The notes below the pieces were generated by a model that did no database searches, was not told the DNA's origin, and was given only the letters and a program-made list of their open reading frames with translations. A program made the position numbers and the translations under genes. Positions 3,383-57,687 of a stretch of 64,000 nt of DNA are shown here, one piece after another (the stretch's first letter is position 1; every line of letters begins with the position of its first letter). Source of the stretch: Allomuricauda sp. GTDB lineage: Bacteria; Bacteroidota; Bacteroidia; Flavobacteriales; Flavobacteriaceae. The DNA lies in assembly GCA_050303195.1 (NCBI GenBank), contig JBNLBG010000006.1, positions 953 to 64,952 of the forward strand, written 5' to 3'.

Positions 3383-3396
3383 TTGACGATTGTCAT
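3383..3396. promoter_or_regulatory. FNR/CRP-type box TTGACGATTGTCAT upstream of the hemG-like gene
   Basis: TTGA-N6-TCA core. Centre 3389.5 lies 29.5 nt from the -7-like TACATTTA (3419-3426), which is 37 nt before the ATG at 3464. Confidence 0.55.
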
Positions 3397-9591: not shown

Positions 9592-9605
9592 ATGATCGAA
9601 ATCAT
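9592..9605. promoter_or_regulatory. FNR-type box ATGATCGAAATCAT serving the minus-strand mlaE operon
   Basis: TGAT-N4-ATCA. Centre 9598.5 lies 29.5 nt from a perfect -7 element TATTTTTG read on the minus strand (9569-9562), 28 nt before the ATG at 9533. Confidence 0.6.
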
Positions 9606-9676: not shown

Positions 9677-10063
9677 ATGGAAACAAAAGCTATGTATAAC
9701 TCAGATTTGCACTTTGAACACCAGCAATGGGAAAAGGAGCTTGAATTTTGGGAAGATGAGCTTAGATCTTTTCAAAATAGGCTTGATGAGTTGGTAAACC
9801 GTTGGACAGATGAAAAGGTGTTGGCGGAATTAAGTGAGTTCCAAAACCAGTTTTTCATTCACAAATCCAAGATTGAGGAATTCAAGGAAAAGATCCACGA
9901 GCATGAACTCAATATCTCCAAACATTTGGAAGCCCAAGAGAACGTCATTAATCGATTGCATTTTGAGCACCATAAAAAAATTAGGGAGGGTATTGAAACA
10001 GAAAGAGGCATTTACCATGATTTGAAGAAGAAATTCTTCCGCTTCCTTTCCAAATACATGTAA
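9677..10063 (+). CDS. hypothetical all-helical, His/Glu-rich protein (two HFEH motifs); a metal-binding helical bundle is possible
   Basis: 128 aa. LHFEHQQWEKELEFW near the N-terminus and RLHFEHHKKIREGIE near the C-terminus, plus IHEHE. No family recognised with certainty. Confidence 0.5.
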   Translation: METKAMYNSDLHFEHQQWEKELEFWEDELRSFQNRLDELVNRWTDEKVLAELSEFQNQFFIHKSKIEEFKEKIHEHELNISKHLEAQENVINRLHFEHHKKIREGIETERGIYHDLKKKFFRFLSKYM

Positions 10064-43458: not shown

Positions 43459-44292
43459 TCAATGTTCCAAAAAGTCGATAAGGTGTTTGCGATACTTGTA
43501 ATAATCGTTATGTTCCAACACTGCCTTTCTGGTTCTGGGACGTTCAAAATCTATGTTTAAAACATCGCCAATTTTGGCCCGTGGGCCACTGGTCATCATA
43601 ACCACACGGTCTGCCAAGAAAATGGCTTCATCCACATCATGGGTAATCATGACCGCAGTAATTTTTTCTTTGTTCCAGATTTCTATAAGAATATCCTGAA
43701 GTTCGCCCCGTGTTAGCGAATCCAACATTCCGAAGGGTTCATCCAAGAGCAGCACCTTGGGTTTAATGGCAAAGGCCCTTGCTATACCTACACGTTGTTG
43801 CATACCTTGTGACAATTCACTGGCCTTTTTATGGAATGCTCCATCAAGGCCCACTTTGTGTAGGTAATATTTAGCAATGTCCTTTTGTTGTGATCTACTG
43901 GCATTTGGAAACACACGGTTTACCCCCAGCAATACATTTTGCAAAGCTGTCATCCAGGGCATTAAGCTCGGGGCCTGAAAAATGACCCCGCGATCTGGTC
44001 CGGGCCCTTTTATGGTACTGCCCAAAACAGCAATATCTCCTCCTGAAATAGGGTTAAGACCCGCAATCATGGAGAGCATTGTGGTCTTGCCACAACCTGA
44101 ATGCCCAATGATGGTCACAAATTCTTCCTTTAGGATCTGTAGGTTCAGATGTTCAAGGACCACATAATCGCCCTTTGGAGTGGGGTAGACCTTTTTAAGG
44201 TCCCTCAAATCCAGCATAATCCTGTCCGATGGATAAGAAATACCATTTTCATGGGGTATGTTAACGGTCTTGTTTTCTATCTGCATTTCCAT
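43459..44292 (-). CDS. nitrate/sulfonate/bicarbonate-type ABC transporter ATP-binding protein
   Basis: Walker [10 protein letters not shown], signature [14 protein letters not shown], Walker [12 protein letters not shown]. Confidence 0.85.
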
Positions 44293-44314
44293 AATGCCTG
44301 TTTTTAAAATTATA

Positions 44315-45154
44315 CTATGCTACAAAGCTCTTTGGACTCAAATCAGGAAGCTCGTAGGTTTCCTGTGATACTGCCTTGCGCTCTTCACCAATCCCCATCA
44401 AATACTCAATAATGGCATTTCTGGTTTTTTTGTACTCCGGATCATCGTTCAATGCTGTTTTGTCTCTTGGACGTTCAATATCAATTTTGAACTCAGGACC
44501 CAATGTGGCCTTAGGGCCTGGTCGTAATGGTATGATCCTGTCAGCCATATAGATGCCTTCATCCACATCATTGGTGATGAGCAGTGCAGTGCGTTGGTCT
44601 TTGCTCCAGATTTTTAGGATTTCATCTTGAAGGTTCCCCCGTGTAAGCGCATCAAGGGCTCCTAAGGGTTCATCCATAATGATCATCTCCGGATTCATGG
44701 CCAATGCCCTTGCCACGGCAACACGCTGGCGCATTCCCCCGGACAGTTCCTTGGGCCTTTTGTTGCTGGCCGGCGTAAGGTTGACCATCTCTATATATTC
44801 TGCCACACGTTTCTTGATGGCCTTTTTGTTTTCCTTAGGAAAGGCTTCCTTTACTGCCATGGCCACATTTTGCCATACACTCAACCAGGGGAGCAGGGAA
44901 TAGTTCTGAAAAATGACCCCTCTTTCATGGCTGGTATCCACTACGGGGCTTCCCTTAAAAAGTACTTCACCGCTGGTGGGTTGCAACAATCCATTGATAA
45001 GGTTTACCAAGGTTGTTTTGCCACTTCCGGTGAAACCGACAATGGCCACAAATTCACCTTCTTCAATTTTGAGGTTGATATCGGTCAGCACTTCGGTACT
45101 ATTGATGCCTTCTCCGTAGGTCTTGCAAACATTGTTCAATTCTAAATATGCCAT
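44315..45154 (-). CDS. nitrate/sulfonate/bicarbonate-type ABC transporter ATP-binding protein
   Basis: Walker [10 protein letters not shown], signature [14 protein letters not shown], Walker [13 protein letters not shown] chose the ATG at 45154 (MAYLELNNV...); an alternative ATG at 45178 would overlap the permease gene. Confidence 0.85.
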
Positions 45155-45164
45155 AATCTTACTG

Positions 45165-46271
45165 TTAAGCGGTTGCATTTTTATTGAACGATACCATATT
45201 CTGGATCACCAACATGATTCTGTCCAGCAAGAATCCTATAATCCCTATAATGAACATGGCCACAATGATCTTTGAATTTGAATCATTGGCTCCATTTTGG
45301 AACTCTTCCCAAACGAAGGAACCCAAACCGGGACTCTGTGCCAAAAGTTCAATGGCTATCAGTACCATCCAAGCTACGGAAAGTGTTATCCGAAGTCCTG
45401 TAAAAATCAAGGGCAAGGATGATGGAAGGATCACTTTGAAGACTTTTTGAAATGGCCCAAGTTTCAATACCTTGGCAACATTGATATAGTCTTTATCCAC
45501 AGAAGAAACACCCATGGCCGTGTTCACCAAGGTTGCCCACATGGAGCAAAGCCCTACACTGATGAACGATATGATAAAGGCACTATCTTGATTGGAATCC
45601 TTGGTCATGGTCTTTACGATCATAAAAACCAACAACAACCAAACTACTGGAGACACGGGTTTAAAGATTTGGATCAGCCAATTGAACGAATTCCGCAATG
45701 TTTCGCTCAGACCAATAATGATACCAATAGGGACCGCAATGACCAAGGCCAACAGAAATCCTGCAAATACAGTTTCCAAACTAGTGAAAATTTGATCCAC
45801 AAATGATGGTCTTCCGGTATAGGTAATGGGGTCTTTGCCTTCGGCAACACGCTTTTTGTTGATGGCCGCCGTTTTTTCCTTGAAAGCCAACTTGTCGGCA
45901 CTGATTTTCTTATGGTCCGCAATCAACGTATTGAAAGATTCCCAAACCTGACCGGGGGATGGTAGTGTATTGGGCTGGCAACTTATATCACCAGACAGAA
46001 TACAGGCCTCCATTTGATCGGCGGCTGCCTGTCCTTGATCAGTTAAAGCTTTCTGGATTTTGTAGTCGGCCTCAATATTGTACAATGCTTTGGCGCCCAT
46101 GTGCCATACCCCTATAAATAGGACTATGGAGATCAAGGGAACAATAAATTTTTTGAAAACTGTCTTGAACTCCAGTTTTGGGGTCTTGACCTTCAATTTG
46201 GACAGGAGTGATTTTACCACTCCCATCCATTTGATGTCATTCACTTTAGTTGCAGTAATGCTTTGCTTCAT
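45165..46271 (-). CDS. nrtB: nitrate ABC transporter permease
   Basis: 368 aa. BPD-transport domain with a long periplasmic insert. EAA-like region [24 protein letters not shown]. Confidence 0.8.
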
Positions 46272-46283
46272 GATTTTTACTGT

Positions 46284-47669
46284 TTAAAGTGAGGAATCGT
46301 CCTTGTTCCCAATTTCAAAGCTGTTGATATAGCCTATGGGATCTTTGGCATCGTATGCGTTTCCATCGATGAAATCTGTAGTTGCAGGTTTGTAACCATC
46401 CGTTTCTGGAATATCCGCTGCGGGAATATGCCCTTCGGCTACCAAAAGCTTGGCCGCTTTTTTCCAGATATCAGGACGGTAGATGTCTTTAATAGTTTCT
46501 TCATACCAAGATGCTGGTTTTGGCTCAGGAATTTGGCCCCACCTTCTCATCTGGGTCAAGAACCAAATACCATCAGAATAAAATGGATAGGTAGCATTGT
46601 ACTTATAGAATACATTAAAGTCGGGCATGGACCGTTTATCTCCCTTTTCAAATTCAAAGGTTCCAGTCATTGAGTTGGCCAAAACAACTTCATCGGCTCC
46701 CACATATTGGGGCATGGATAGAATTTTAACAGCTTCTGCTCTATTGCCTGGCTCATCCAACCATTTTCCGGCACGAATCAACGCTTTGGTCACAGCAACA
46801 GCAGTGTTTGGATTTTCCTCAACAAACTTTTTGGTCATTACAAAGACCTTTTCAGGATTGTTTTTCCAAATGTCATAATTGGTGGTCACGGGAACTCCTA
46901 TTCCTTTAAATACGGCTTGTTGGTTCCAGGGCTCACCTACACAGTACCCATAAATGGTCCCAGCTTCTAAAGTAGCTGGCATCTGTGGAGGTGGCGTAAC
47001 CGATAACAAAACTTCGGCATCAATTTGTCCCTGCACATTATCGGCGGTGTACATTCCGGGATGGATTCCGGCCGCTGCTAACCAATATCTAATTTCGTAG
47101 TTGTGGGTAGATACCGGGAACACCATTCCCATTTTAAAAGGTTTTCCGCTGTTCTTATACGAGGAGATTACTGGTTTTAGGGCATCTGCCTTTATGGGGT
47201 GAACGGGTTTGCCATCTGCATCTTTGGGAACATTGGTTTTCATTTTGGACCATACATCGTTGGATACTGTTATGCCATTGCCATTCAGGTCCATTGAAAA
47301 TGGTGTGACCAGCTGGGCTTGTCGGCCAAATCCGGCTCCAGCTGCAATGGGTTGTCCGGCCAACATGTGCGAGCCATCCAATTGCCCGTCAATAACACGG
47401 TCGAGTACATTTTTCCAGTTGGATTGTGCCTCAACCGAAACAAAAAGACCTTCATCCTCGAAGAAGCCTTTTTCCTTGGCGATGGCCAAGGGAGCCATAT
47501 CGGTAAGTTTGATAAAGCCGAAGGTCAATTGAGGTTTTTCAATTTCCAGTGAAGTTTTAGGTACGTTTGCTTGGGCAGTTTCTGCTGTTTTTTTCTCAGT
47601 TTTCCCTCCGCACGCCATAAGGACTGCTGAGAGTAACCATGCGATTGATTTTAAAGTGATGTTTTTCAT
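46284..47669 (-). CDS. nrtA: CmpA/NrtA family nitrate ABC transporter substrate-binding lipoprotein
   Basis: 461 aa. Lipobox [32 protein letters not shown] and [13 protein letters not shown] are NrtA/CmpA signatures. Confidence 0.85.
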
Positions 47670-47683
47670 AATATTAAGCTTTC

Positions 47684-47697
47684 TACGTATTAGTACT
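47684..47697. promoter_or_regulatory. TACGTA core with flanking arm (TACGTAtTAGTACT) just upstream of nrtA
   Basis: Core at 47684-47689, 14 nt from the nrtA ATG (47669). The arm TAGTACT parallels TAATACT in the narK and nirB sites. Confidence 0.45.
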
Positions 47698-47881
47698 TAT
47701 TTATAGCAAATGTATACTGAGTAATGGAACTATTTTATGGGAAAGCCCATGGCTGCATATCTTTTTAATACATGAACTGTTATGTTACAAACCATGGAAA
47801 AACCTGTCAAAAAACATATTATTCTTTTAACTGACTGATTTATATTTAGATATGTATGGTTGAGGTTTACTGAGTCTGAGG

Positions 47882-48073: not shown

Positions 48074-48838
48074 CTATCCGGCCAAATAGAAATTGTGCTC
48101 CAAGATTTCCCTTTTCAAGTAGTCTACATCAACAATGCCTATTCGCTTGCCTTTTGTATTGATAAGGTTTTCTCTTTTAAGTGCGGAAAACGTCCTGATG
48201 ACCTGTTCTTCGGTTGTTCCGGCATAATCGGCATAATCCCTTCGACTCAGGGGTACATCAAGAAAGCCATTGGATTGCCCAAATTTTCGGTTGATGTACA
48301 ATAAAGTATCAATGACCCGCTCCCTAACGGTCATTTGGGAGAGTGACTTTACCTTTGCTTCGCTTTTGTTGAGTTCGTTGGCATAAAAAAGCATTAGATC
48401 ATAGGCAAATGACGCGTCGCTCTTCAGCACTTCTTGGAGCAGGTCCTTTGAAAAGTAGCAAAGGGTTGAATCTTCAAGGGCGATTGCCCCAATGGGGTAG
48501 AATTCTTCGGTGCCAAAACCACGATGGCCAATGATTTCCCCTGCTTTGGCAAAGCGAACAATTTGTTCCCTTCCGTTGATACCAGTTCTAAAAACTTTCA
48601 CCTTGCCTTTTAGGATAAAGAACAATCCGTTTACCGGGGCCCCTTCAATAATGAACTGTTGCCCTTTTTTACACCGGATATCATTTTTACGTTCCATAAA
48701 CTTCGCAACAACGGGGGAGCCAATGTTTTTTTTCAACAAACAATATTCATTATTGCAACGGCTGCACGAGGTGTCTGACATGGATGGTTTTCCATGTCTC
48801 TCCTTGATTTTGGGTCCGTATGCCTCGTAAAATTGCAT
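48074..48838 (-). CDS. Crp/Fnr family transcriptional regulator with an FNR-type cysteine pattern
   Basis: N-terminal C-x2-C-x4-C (CSRCNNEYC) plus a Cys in ALEDSTLCYF, the position equivalent to E. coli FNR Cys122 (ALETSMVCEI). cNMP-like beta-roll. The C-terminal HTH contains EEQVIR. Alternative start at 48781. Confidence 0.75.
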   Translation of the reverse strand: MQFYEAYGPKIKERHGKPSMSDTSCSRCNNEYCLLKKNIGSPVVAKFMERKNDIRCKKGQQFIIEGAPVNGLFFILKGKVKVFRTGINGREQIVRFAKAGEIIGHRGFGTEEFYPIGAIALEDSTLCYFSKDLLQEVLKSDASFAYDLMLFYANELNKSEAKVKSLSQMTVRERVIDTLLYINRKFGQSNGFLDVPLSRRDYADYAGTTEEQVIRTFSALKRENLINTKGKRIGIVDVDYLKREILEHNFYLAG

Positions 48839-48848
48839 CAGGGTCTAA

Positions 48849-50267
48849 TTATTTTGACTTAACATAAACAGGCTTGGGTTGTCCGGCTTTTCCAATTTTC
48901 TCTTCTCTTTCATCGGCAGTTGAGAATTTAATGGCCAATGACATAAATGCCGTTACCACTACAAATGCACCTATAATAAAGTATCCGCTAGAAACGGCTG
49001 AAGATGCAGCTGAGGCTTGGGCCGCTTTTACAGCCTCTTCACCCAATGAAGCATTGACCTTTATTGCGGCTGTTTCTGCCAGGGCCGATTTCGATTTCAA
49101 CAAAAGGGCGGCCAAAAAAGCCCCTACATTACCCCCAGCTCCCACAATACCTGATATGGACCCAATTGCTTTCTTATTGATAAAGGGAACCACAGAGAAC
49201 GTTGCTCCTTCCGCCATTTGAACGGTTAAACTGAATGCCACCAAAAATAGTATTCCAAAAGCTATACTGGTGGTCACAGAAAAAATGGAGAGCATGATGC
49301 CCTCAACGCCCAAGATAAGTGCCAAGAAAAGTACACGCCCTCTCAGTCCTTTCATTTTTCCAAACCGATCACCAAAGAAACCGCCCAAGGTTCTGGCAAA
49401 AATATTCATCAAGGCAAATGACAGAACCAAGTTACCAGCGGTTGTTCTATTAAGGTGAAATGTGTTTTGGAGATAATCGTCCATAGTTCCATATACCGTA
49501 AGTTCCATTCCAAAGCAAGCGGCATAGACTATGAACAAAATCCACACCCTATAATCTGTAAGGGTTTTCAAGAATGGAATCTCATCTTTCTTTTTTATGG
49601 GCAATTCTCCCTTTTCCTTTAACTCGGAAAAATTTCCTTCGGGCGTATCCTGAGTGAAGAAATAATAAACAATCCCCATGACAAAACAGATGATACCTGC
49701 TATGACCATGGAATAACGCCAAGCTATTTCATCTGCCACACCAAAGCTCACCACAGCGGCAGCGATCAAGGGCATTCCTAAGCGGTTGGCCCCTCCACCG
49801 AGGTTTCCCCAACCTGCGGAAGTAGCATTGGCGGTTCCCACAATATTTGGAGCAAACATAATTGAGGTATGAAATTGGGTAATTACAAAAGAGGCTCCAA
49901 TAAATCCGATAAAAAGGCGACATACTAAAAATTGCAAAGGTGTTTGCACAAAACCAATAAGAATAACAGGTAGTGCCCCAATGGTCAACAAAAAGGTATA
50001 ACATAATCTTGGACCGTATTTATCACATAGTTTACCGATAAGAAGTCGTGCAAAAACGGTTCCTGTTACCGCTAAAATGACCGAATTCCATTTTTGGTTC
50101 GGTGTCAATCCCAAATCCCTTACTACATCCGGCATAAACGGAACAATACCGAACCAAGCAAAGAAGCAGGTGAAAAATGCTATTGAGGTAATCCAAAAAG
50201 TTCTGGTTGGAATACTTTTAAAGTTTAATAGATTTAAAGCAGTGGCTTTTTGAGATGTAACGGACAT
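48849..50267 (-). CDS. narK: NarK/NasA family MFS nitrate/nitrite transporter
   Basis: I chose the ATG at 50267; the track start at 50291 is TTG. 12 TM. GWGNLGGG and GIVGAGGNVG are the two nitrate-signature (NS) motifs. Confidence 0.85.
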   Translation of the reverse strand: MSVTSQKATALNLLNFKSIPTRTFWITSIAFFTCFFAWFGIVPFMPDVVRDLGLTPNQKWNSVILAVTGTVFARLLIGKLCDKYGPRLCYTFLLTIGALPVILIGFVQTPLQFLVCRLFIGFIGASFVITQFHTSIMFAPNIVGTANATSAGWGNLGGGANRLGMPLIAAAVVSFGVADEIAWRYSMVIAGIICFVMGIVYYFFTQDTPEGNFSELKEKGELPIKKKDEIPFLKTLTDYRVWILFIVYAACFGMELTVYGTMDDYLQNTFHLNRTTAGNLVLSFALMNIFARTLGGFFGDRFGKMKGLRGRVLFLALILGVEGIMLSIFSVTTSIAFGILFLVAFSLTVQMAEGATFSVVPFINKKAIGSISGIVGAGGNVGAFLAALLLKSKSALAETAAIKVNASLGEEAVKAAQASAASSAVSSGYFIIGAFVVVTAFMSLAIKFSTADEREEKIGKAGQPKPVYVKSK

Positions 50268-50296
50268 GATACTTAGCTTTGTTTGAAACAAAAATA

Positions 50297-50321
50297 AGTA
50301 TTAATACGTATTTTTACGTAC
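50297..50321. promoter_or_regulatory. AGTATTA arm plus tandem TACGTA cores upstream of narK
   Basis: AGTATTAaTACGTAtttttACGTAC. Cores at 50305-50310 and 50315-50320, 10 bp apart. The proximal core lies 8 nt from a perfect -7 element TATTTTTG read on the minus strand (50296-50289), 21 nt before the ATG at 50267. Confidence 0.55.
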
Positions 50322-57673: not shown

Positions 57674-57687
57674 ATGATTTATATCAT
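57674..57687. promoter_or_regulatory. FNR-type box ATGATTTATATCAT upstream of the cytochrome c-fasciclin-nosZ operon
   Basis: TGAT-N4-ATCA. Centre 57680.5 lies 29.5 nt from a perfect -7 element TACTTTTG (57710-57717), 26 nt before the ATG at 57744. On the other side AATCTTTG (57651-57644, minus strand) sits at the same 29.5-nt distance towards the Rrf2 gene. Confidence 0.6.

Follow-up and report, generated by a model that had tools for sequence, protein, structure and literature searches.

The closest described counterparts of the locus considered here are Crp/Fnr-family regulators with links to oxygen or nitrate. At the nirB promoter of Escherichia coli FNR acts with NarL/NarP, and in cyanobacteria NtcA acts at nrtABCD. 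The Fnr protein of Bacillus subtilis binds a [4Fe-4S] cluster through a CxxCx4C triad and is encoded in a narK-fnr operon. The clusters of FNR and NsrR also react with nitric oxide (NO), and the Vitreoscilla globin is induced by FNR at low oxygen. Nitrate assimilation costs marine heterotrophs iron and reductant, and its regulation in Bacteroidota is essentially unknown. Here, we analysed the gene for an FNR-like regulator within a stretch of 64,000 nucleotides from Allomuricauda sp. (GCA_050303195.1, contig JBNLBG010000006.1, forward-strand positions 953 to 64,952; hereafter the window), part of a 3.5-Mb, 245-contig Flavobacteriaceae assembly that we designate G000. A literature search returned no paper on the family of this regulator in Flavobacteriaceae.

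We propose, with a probability of roughly 0.55, that the protein is a local and dedicated iron-sulfur (Fe-S) activator of the class II, FNR-like type, that its synthesis is driven by nitrate, and that it serves nrtABCD and a globin operon rather than acting as the global regulator of TGAy-N4-rTCA promoters such as those of nosZ, hemN and cbb3 genes. Sequence comparison and a structure model lend good support to its identity as an FNR-type Fe-S sensor, probably binding [4Fe-4S]. The regulator is a member of a large, uncharacterized Bacteroidota subfamily. The gene and the relevant parts of it are as follows.

48074–48838, minus strand: Crp/Fnr-family regulator gene of the Bacteroidota CxxCx4C subfamily; intact open reading frame (ORF), 254 amino acids (aa), ATG start.
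48740–48766, minus strand: codons of Cys25, Cys28 and Cys33 (C-x2-C-x4-C), predicted N-terminal cluster ligands, read from the sequence.
48458–48460, minus strand: codon of Cys127, counterpart of FNR Cys122 by HMMER alignment to FNR chains 5cvr and 8qto.
48671–48673, minus strand: codon of Cys56, invariant among orthologues and kept within the orthogroup only.
48173–48244, minus strand: helix-turn-helix, residues 199–222, from the secondary structure of the model and alignment to the FNR helix.

The β-barrel, long dimerization helix and Crp-type helix-turn-helix of the Crp/Fnr superfamily were all present in Pfam matches (PF00027 cNMP_binding, 2.5e-19; PF13545 HTH_Crp_2, 5e-15) and in the AF2 model. 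No curated NCBIfam cut-off was reached: the regulator scored 78.6 bits against FixK (cut-off 300), 73.3 bits against the FNR subfamily model NF008365 (cut-off 228) and 38.9 bits against the NtcA model TIGR03697 (cut-off 244.95), and it fell far under the cut-offs of the FnrL and CRP family models. The start at Met1 is backed by an 86 % identical orthologue, whose residue 20 is Val. An earlier note, made from the sequence of this DNA alone, had described an FNR-type set of cysteines (C-x2-C-x4-C and a fourth Cys), had paired the segment ALEDSTLCYF by eye with ALETSMVCEI of FNR and had pointed to an FNR Glu and Arg in the recognition helix. These readings were borne out, with HMMER giving the same pairing of ALEDSTLCYF with the A. 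fischeri FNR segment and aligning TEEQVIR of the regulator with VETISR. The recognition helix T-E-E-Q-V-I-R (Glu211, Ile214, Arg215), which was invariant within the orthogroup, accordingly retains the Glu and Arg, and has Ile214 in place of the Ser of the FNR-type E--SR helix.

Relatives were sought among 1.84 billion cluster representatives. This search returned 120 relatives at E ≤ 1e-30, and the N-terminal CxxCx4C motif was found in 57 of the 150 best-matching 50 %-identity clusters. In an alignment of 73 subfamily members, Cys25 and Cys28 were universal (73/73), Cys127 was kept in 72 members and Cys33 in 69; as most of these members are only 30–40 % identical, such conservation places the motif beyond chance. 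The four conserved positions are the four ligand positions of FNR. Elsewhere the subfamily was more variable, with Cys at position 56 in just 15/73 members, an extra Cys six residues past the third in 39/73, and either Ser (30/73) or Ile (32/73) at recognition-helix position 214. Orthologues proper, 56–86 % identical to the regulator, kept all five cysteines; Zobellia, Cellulophaga, Polaribacter and Maribacter relatives were among the matches. When a profile of the subfamily was matched to FNR (E 9e-40), Cys25, Cys28 and the central Cys fell in register, and the third Cys was displaced by one residue relative to A. fischeri FNR.

An AF2 model built from 24 near-identical sequences was poor (predicted local distance difference test, pLDDT, 67) and was replaced by one from the 73-sequence alignment, with pLDDT 91.7 overall and 82–94 for residues 21–40. 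Structural comparison with VIA-align gave Z scores of 21–26 for many Crp/Fnr structures generally, and 24.6–25.3 for holo-FNR (9qll, 9qly, 9qmc, 8qto, 5e44), with a root-mean-square deviation of 2.4–2.6 Å over 224–225 residues. A predicted structure aligned to FNR was among the checks named in the earlier note, and the model indeed superposes on holo-FNR from residue 22 at Z of about 25. Model residues 22–248 overlay FNR 17–246 with an offset of 5, which places Cys25, Cys28 and Cys127 on FNR positions 20, 23 and 122; Cys33, one residue short, corresponds to FNR Cys29. The N-terminal arm of the model fits the cluster-bound forms of FNR, whilst apo or degraded forms align only from model residue 45–51 because the arm is disordered in them.

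The genes that accompany the regulator were examined in one genome per genus from 201 Flavobacteriaceae genera, with orthologues defined at E ≤ 1e-83 and a paralogue class at E of about 1e-20 to 1e-40. Orthologues were found in 27/201 genera and the paralogue class in most other genomes. NrtA occurred in 29/201 genera and in 25 of the 27 orthologue genomes, such that both were present in 25 genera, the regulator alone in 2 and NrtA alone in 4. In 22 of the 24 other genomes with both, NrtA adjoined the regulator or lay within about 11 kb of it; in the remaining two they were on separate contigs. A 138-aa globin was similarly tied to the regulator, being present in 13/201 genera and 12 of the 27 orthologue genomes, and in 12 of those 13 genera it lay directly downstream of the regulator gene, followed by a lipoprotein of 270 aa (CxxCH motif, Tll0287-like domain) with which it forms an operon (loci L006, L008, L010–L012, L014–L018, L021 and L023). 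G000 itself has no globin gene. NarK was present in 33/201 genera and 22 of the 27 orthologue genomes; the 11 NarK genomes without the regulator carried kinase, response regulator, nirBD, cobA, narK, porin and nasA genes and no nrtABCD. For nosZ (110/201 genera, 13 of the 27 orthologue genomes) there was no association with the regulator across genera. It is therefore nrtABCD and the globin operon, rather than narK or nosZ, that are conserved as partners of the regulator. We also observed two tandem orthologue copies, 57–58 % identical to the regulator, between nirB and nrtA in a 1.8-Mb genome (G003:C1:217862-219442, L025), in which the nrtA promoter was without its usual architecture.

The nrtA promoter of the window contains a candidate operator, placed relative to the transporter genes and a promoter element as listed below. 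TAnnTTTG is the −7 promoter consensus of Bacteroidota.

43459–47669, minus strand: nrtABCD, ABC-type nitrate transporter, predicted target operon (ORFs and co-occurrence).
47737–47750, minus strand: predicted regulator box ATGGGCTTTCCCAT in the nrtA promoter, a perfect palindrome centred at about −41 (sequence and conservation).
47707–47714, minus strand: −7 promoter element TACATTTG of nrtABCD, a match to TAnnTTTG.
47684–47699, minus strand: 16-bp palindrome TAAGTACTAATACGTA downstream of the −7 element, a predicted nitrate-cluster operator and not the regulator's site.

A common architecture was recognized at nrtA in 23/25 regulator-bearing genomes, and runs 5′ to 3′ as a hairpin with a T-run, a AAAAAGAGG block, the 14-mer box, 22 nt, TAnnTTTG, 7–10 nt, the 16-bp palindrome and the ATG. 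The spacing of exactly 22 nt between box and TAnnTTTG was fixed. Across the 23 genomes, positions 1–3 of the 14-mer were A, T and G in 20, 23 and 22, and positions 12–14 were C, A and T in 23, 23 and 22, with position 4 (G14/T6/A3) and position 11 (T15/C5/A2/G1) less uniform. Since a −7 element begins near −11 or −12, the centre of the box would fall at about −41. The G000 spacer had no −33 TTG. As read from its sequence, this layout is that of an activator-dependent class II promoter. Globin promoters had the same layout, with boxes of the form CTGyn-N4-TTCAT. The predicted box ATGnn-N4-nnCAT resembles the FNR site TTGAT-N4-ATCAA in geometry and in its T-G and C-A, but starts with A or C and varies at position 4.

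Two further parts of the nrtA promoter deserve mention. The hairpin with its T-run is probably the terminator of the regulator gene; we had considered its hairpin-like CTG-N8-CAG as a second box, but discarded this for the terminator reading, as the spacing between it and the box is not maintained in G000. The AAAAAGAGG block (about 47753–47764), which is conserved 6–7 nt upstream of the nrtA box in about 20 genera, might act as an UP-like element or bind a further factor.

The box followed the orthologue across genomes. It was absent from the nrtA promoters of all four genomes that have nrtA and lack the regulator (G044, G091, G098 and G114). Two of these (G044 and G098) carry the paralogue, which indicates that the box tracks the orthologue and not the paralogue. 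Among G000 and the genomes nearest to it in NrtA and NarK identity, G000 and G149 had both regulator and box, and G044, G091 and G098 had neither. A scan of five whole regulator-bearing genomes for the composite promoter recovered only nrtA (5/5) and the globin gene (2/2), and a reversed control pattern gave zero matches in the same genomes.

Several observations weigh against the reading of a dedicated Fe-S activator. In the protein, the third Cys lies one residue closer than in FNR (x4 versus x5), and FNR Asp154 is not conserved, aligning with Ser159 of the regulator, so that the monomer–dimer switch may differ; the FNR relay residues Asp130 and Arg140 are also not conserved. At the promoters, the −41 position is derived from the −7 consensus and not from a mapped start. 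The nrtA and globin boxes are weak in their left half, with G, T or C at position 4 versus A in 23/23 nos boxes. One genome (G034) has the regulator and a box-less nrtA promoter, located on another contig, and the nrtA promoters of G003 and G155 also deviate. Since the paralogue shares the E--IR helix, it might occupy the nrtA and globin boxes instead. Finally, the sampled genomes are related to one another, and the co-occurrence counts overstate independence.

The regulator gene is surrounded by what Pfam matches and ORFs identify as a nitrate-assimilation island. It comprises a fused NAD(P)H nitrate reductase, an NiR-like rubredoxin protein, nrtABCD, porin, narK and cobA genes, together with nirBD, a DUF4202 gene, a NarX-like kinase and a NarL-like response regulator; beyond it are an Rrf2 regulator gene and then a clade II nos cluster. 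The features upstream of the regulator gene are as follows.

48849–50267, minus strand: narK, MFS (major facilitator superfamily) nitrate/nitrite transporter (PF07690).
50289–50320, minus strand: promoter of narK and the regulator gene (narK-fnr), with a −7 element TATTTTTG (50289–50296) fused to two overlapping 16-bp palindromes of the TAAGTA/TACGTA-N4-TACGTA type, identified by sequence.

The stop codon of narK ends at 48849 and the regulator ATG is at 48838, a gap of 10 nt as given in the earlier note, and there was no promoter-like element inside the narK 3′ end; narK and the regulator gene are thus probably co-transcribed. The listed TTG start of narK (50291) falls inside the minus-strand −7 element at 50289–50296, and narK homologues align from residue 5–13, favouring the ATG at 50267 (ninth codon) as the likelier start. 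The gap to cobA is 163 nt from the listed start, or 187 nt with the start at the ninth codon. The transcription unit had previously been drawn as cobA-narK-fnr. Its narK-fnr portion stands, but inclusion of cobA does not, as a separate promoter lies in the gap. Nonetheless, we saw no clear terminator after cobA and a scan of the cobA–narK stretch for terminator and promoter consensus gave nothing decisive. Read-through from cobA into narK-fnr is possible. Adjacency of narK and the regulator was found in G000 and in 2/26 other orthologue genomes (G149 and G155).

The 16-bp palindrome was rare, with only six copies in the whole G000 genome, five of them inside the nitrate cluster. In most genera it precedes the regulator orthologue's own gene, fused to the −7 box. 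It was also present at promoters of 15/15 examined nitrate clusters from regulator-less genomes, all of which encode a NarL-like response regulator. Judging from this distribution, the palindrome is an operator of the nitrate cluster and the site of another factor, and the regulator, being preceded by it, is a member and not the master of the palindrome regulon. Its occurrence at the regulator's promoter suggests a cascade in which nitrate acts first and redox state second. In the box-less nrtA promoters (G044, G091, G098, G114 and G034) the palindrome is located upstream of the −7 element, at about 10 nt, rather than downstream, and thus occupies activator-like or repressor-like positions depending on lineage.

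A second set of boxes in G000 belongs to a different regulon. Fifteen intergenic promoters carried a box 21–22 nt upstream of TAnnTTTG (22 nt in 13), 11 of them with the full TGAy-N4-rTCA sequence and nrtA among the four without. By their N-terminal sequences, the genes behind these boxes appear to include those for HemN, universal stress protein (usp), ribosome hibernation factor (hpf), an ATP-cone protein (NrdD-like), malate dehydrogenase (mdh), the mlaE operon and a DoxX-like gene, and Pfam added the nos operon; example promoters are at C2:79283, C2:72299, C2:66586, C7:19623 and C53:8534. This is a coherent, typical low-oxygen regulon of the hypoxia type in an aerobic flavobacterium. The fixed spacing is needed to see it. 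The bare TGA-N6-TCA pattern, which the earlier note had used as the box, was not enriched in the window (26 found versus 23 expected), and neither were TTGAT-N4-ATCAA with one mismatch (5 versus 6.7 expected) or TTGA-N6-TCAA (4 versus 3 expected), and only boxes at 22 nt from a −7 element are informative. Within the window, the hemG-like flavodoxin gene has a box at 3383–3396 followed after 22 nt by TACATTTA, a TAnnTTTA-type element. The box at 9592–9605 is spaced 22 nt from a minus-strand −7 element and therefore serves the mlaE operon and not the plus-strand gene at 9677. The principal features of this regulon are listed below.

57674–57687, plus strand: nos-operon box ATGATTTATATCAT of the general low-oxygen regulon, identified by conservation at nosZ loci.
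G000:C2:91720-92436: cbb3-linked Crp/Fnr paralogue, 238 aa, 31 % identical to the regulator.

The nos box, ATGAy-N4-rTCAT, was kept at 20/20 nosZ loci, of which 18 belong to orthologue-less genomes, lying about 1.25 kb upstream of nosZ in most and 700–1500 bp upstream in the rest. Its conservation suggests that it is probably served by a Crp/Fnr protein other than the regulator of the window. The paralogue has CxxC and a central Cys, no third Cys, and a helix reading E-S-A-I-R. It is divergent from ccoI-ccoNO-ccoP (cluster span G000:C2:85602-92436, locus L090), with a consensus TGAT-N4-ATCA box between it and the cco genes, 35 nt from its start, and it was found in about 122/201 genera, often within about 25 kb of nosZ. 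These features make it a stronger candidate than the window's gene for control of the general low-oxygen regulon, nosZ included. A 350-aa fusion of receiver, cNMP and HTH_Crp domains (REC-Crp; G000:C31:12929-13981) has the same E--IR helix, and several TGAT-N4-ATCA boxes lie near it on contig C31.

These results bear on four other explanations of the regulator. The earlier note had made it the candidate master of all boxed promoters, an O2 sensor that acts remotely on nosZ, the hemG-like gene and the remaining TGA-N6-TCA promoters. An FNR-like E--xR helix, the cysteines, a real G000 regulon of about 15 promoters with box, 22 nt and TAnnTTTG, the nos operon included, and a nos box that also fits ATG-N8-CAT would all be accommodated by such a role. 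We nevertheless regard it as very unlikely, given that orthologues (27/201 genera) and nosZ (110) coincide in just 13 and are uncorrelated, that the nos box is kept in 18/18 examined nosZ loci of regulator-less genomes, and that the composite promoters tied to the regulator are those of nrtA and the globin gene only. Control of the boxed promoters by a different paralogue, an outcome the earlier note had itself raised against its proposal, is now the likelier, given that the cbb3-adjacent protein, with a consensus box in its own promoter region in G000, is present in about 122/201 genera and often lies near nosZ. The suggestion that the regulator binds the 16-bp TAAGTA/TACGTA-N4-TACGTA palindrome, and thereby controls its own gene and all assimilation operons, is hardly credible. 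The palindrome does precede the regulator's own gene, is of a size to suit a Crp dimer and shares the 5-N4-5 layout of Crp/Fnr sites, including G as third base, but it fits the 7-2-7 arrangement of heptamers in NarL sites as well, and it is found in all 15 regulator-less nitrate clusters, each with its NarL-like response regulator.

Two other explanations concern the cluster and what the protein senses. The same protein with the same targets might respond to NO or nitrite stress, with NO, arising as a by-product from the nitrite of nitrate assimilation, nitrosylating the cluster and with NO detoxification by the globin controlled together with uptake. The reactivity of FNR and NsrR clusters towards NO is compatible with this, as are the aerobic lifestyle of the hosts and the finding that the top specific neighbour after nrtA is the globin with its haem-c (CxxCH) Tll0287-like lipoprotein, a pair seen almost only beside the regulator. 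However, an activator whose cluster is destroyed by NO would turn the globin off when it is needed, and the scheme works only if the protein is a repressor or active in its apo form; G000 is itself without the globin gene, and a globin target would suit O2 sensing equally, given the FNR-induced globin of Vitreoscilla. We consider NO or nitrite as the signal rather unlikely. The cysteines might alternatively hold no Fe-S cluster at all and form a thiol/disulfide or zinc site, acting as a redox switch or in a purely structural capacity, or the barrel might sense a small molecule such as 2-oxoglutarate, as in NtcA. The x4 spacing in place of x5 of FNR could be taken this way, as could the fifth Cys six residues on in 39/73 members, which creates CxxC...C...C arrays also seen in zinc sites, and the parallel in role with NtcA, a Crp-family class II activator of cyanobacterial nrtABCD. 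Against this, the four conserved positions match the four ligands of FNR, distant central Cys included, the model adopts the arm conformation of holo-FNR, B. subtilis Fnr is established to bind [4Fe-4S] via a CxxCx4C triad, and the NtcA model gave 38.9 bits versus a cut-off of 245. Absence of a cluster thus appears improbable.

Returning to the dedicated Fe-S activator, its action might be envisaged as follows. Cys25, Cys28, Cys33 and Cys127 would hold an Fe-S cluster, most likely [4Fe-4S], on the N-terminal arm against the β-barrel, and the cluster-bearing dimer would bind the FNR-related box ATGnn-N4-nnCAT about 41 bp upstream of the transcription start of nrtABCD and, in other genera, of the globin/haem-lipoprotein operon. 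Bound there, it would activate transcription as a class II activator, and loss of or damage to the cluster by O2, possibly also by NO or iron shortage, would switch it off. Its synthesis would come from the palindrome-bearing promoter, probably bound by the NarX/NarL-like pair of the cluster, such that high-affinity nitrate uptake would need both a nitrate signal and an intact cluster. In this scheme we infer the cluster itself, activation rather than repression, the transcription start and the signal, which may be O2 by analogy with FNR, or else NO or Fe-S status. The broader proposal, which we offer tentatively and at slightly less than even odds, is that a dedicated Fe-S Crp/Fnr sensor, induced via the nitrate two-component system, makes ATP-driven high-affinity nitrate uptake and the companion globin conditional on oxygen, NO or Fe-S status in aerobic marine Flavobacteriaceae. 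If true, this would represent an undescribed feed-forward link from redox or iron state to nitrogen assimilation, and the regulator would be the first protein to be given a functional place within the very large CxxCx4C Crp/Fnr family of Bacteroidota. The analysis provides a testable circuit, running from the nitrate two-component system through an Fe-S Crp/Fnr protein to nrtABCD and the globin, with a predicted operator and its position defined. It also sets a local regulator apart from the paralogue likelier to control nitrous-oxide reductase, a separation that bears on predicting N2O consumption by flavobacteria, and flags a large uncharacterized family of probable Fe-S transcription factors in Bacteroidota.

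Comparison with the known systems shows partial likeness to each. NarR of Paracoccus is likewise a Crp/Fnr regulator coupled genetically to a NarK transporter and nitrate metabolism, but it is without the cysteines, responds to nitrate/nitrite and controls the respiratory nitrate reductase. Cyanobacterial NtcA resembles the predicted role in that it belongs to the Crp family and, as a class II activator centred at −41.5, turns on nrtABCD and other genes of nitrate assimilation (Z of about 22 in VIA-align); it differs in sensing 2-oxoglutarate, in having no Cys cluster and in binding GTA-N8-TAC, which is unlike the regulator's predicted box. B. subtilis Fnr shares the family, the spacing of the CxxCx4C triad and the link to narK through its narK-fnr operon, yet its triad is C-terminal with Asp as fourth ligand, in contrast to the N-terminal triad and central Cys found here. 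The cbb3-linked paralogue and the regulator both have an N-terminal CxxC, a central Cys and an E--IR helix; the paralogue lacks the third Cys, is present in about 122/201 genera and is divergent from ccoI-ccoNO-ccoP. With FNR of E. coli and A. fischeri (5e44, 9qll) the regulator has in common the two-domain fold, the N-terminal Cys triad with central Cys, the Glu and Arg of the recognition helix, a predicted 14-bp 5-N4-5 box at about −41.5 (class II) and a proposed co-operation with a NarL-type system, of the kind found at nirB and narG in E. coli. It departs from FNR in its identity of about 24 %, in CxxCx4C versus CxxCx5C, in Ile for Ser212 and Ser for Asp154, and in a predicted box with A or C as its first base, where FNR sites have T, and with a degenerate left half. 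FNR is a global anaerobic switch, whereas the regulator described here would be a local one, attached to an assimilatory uptake operon in an aerobe.

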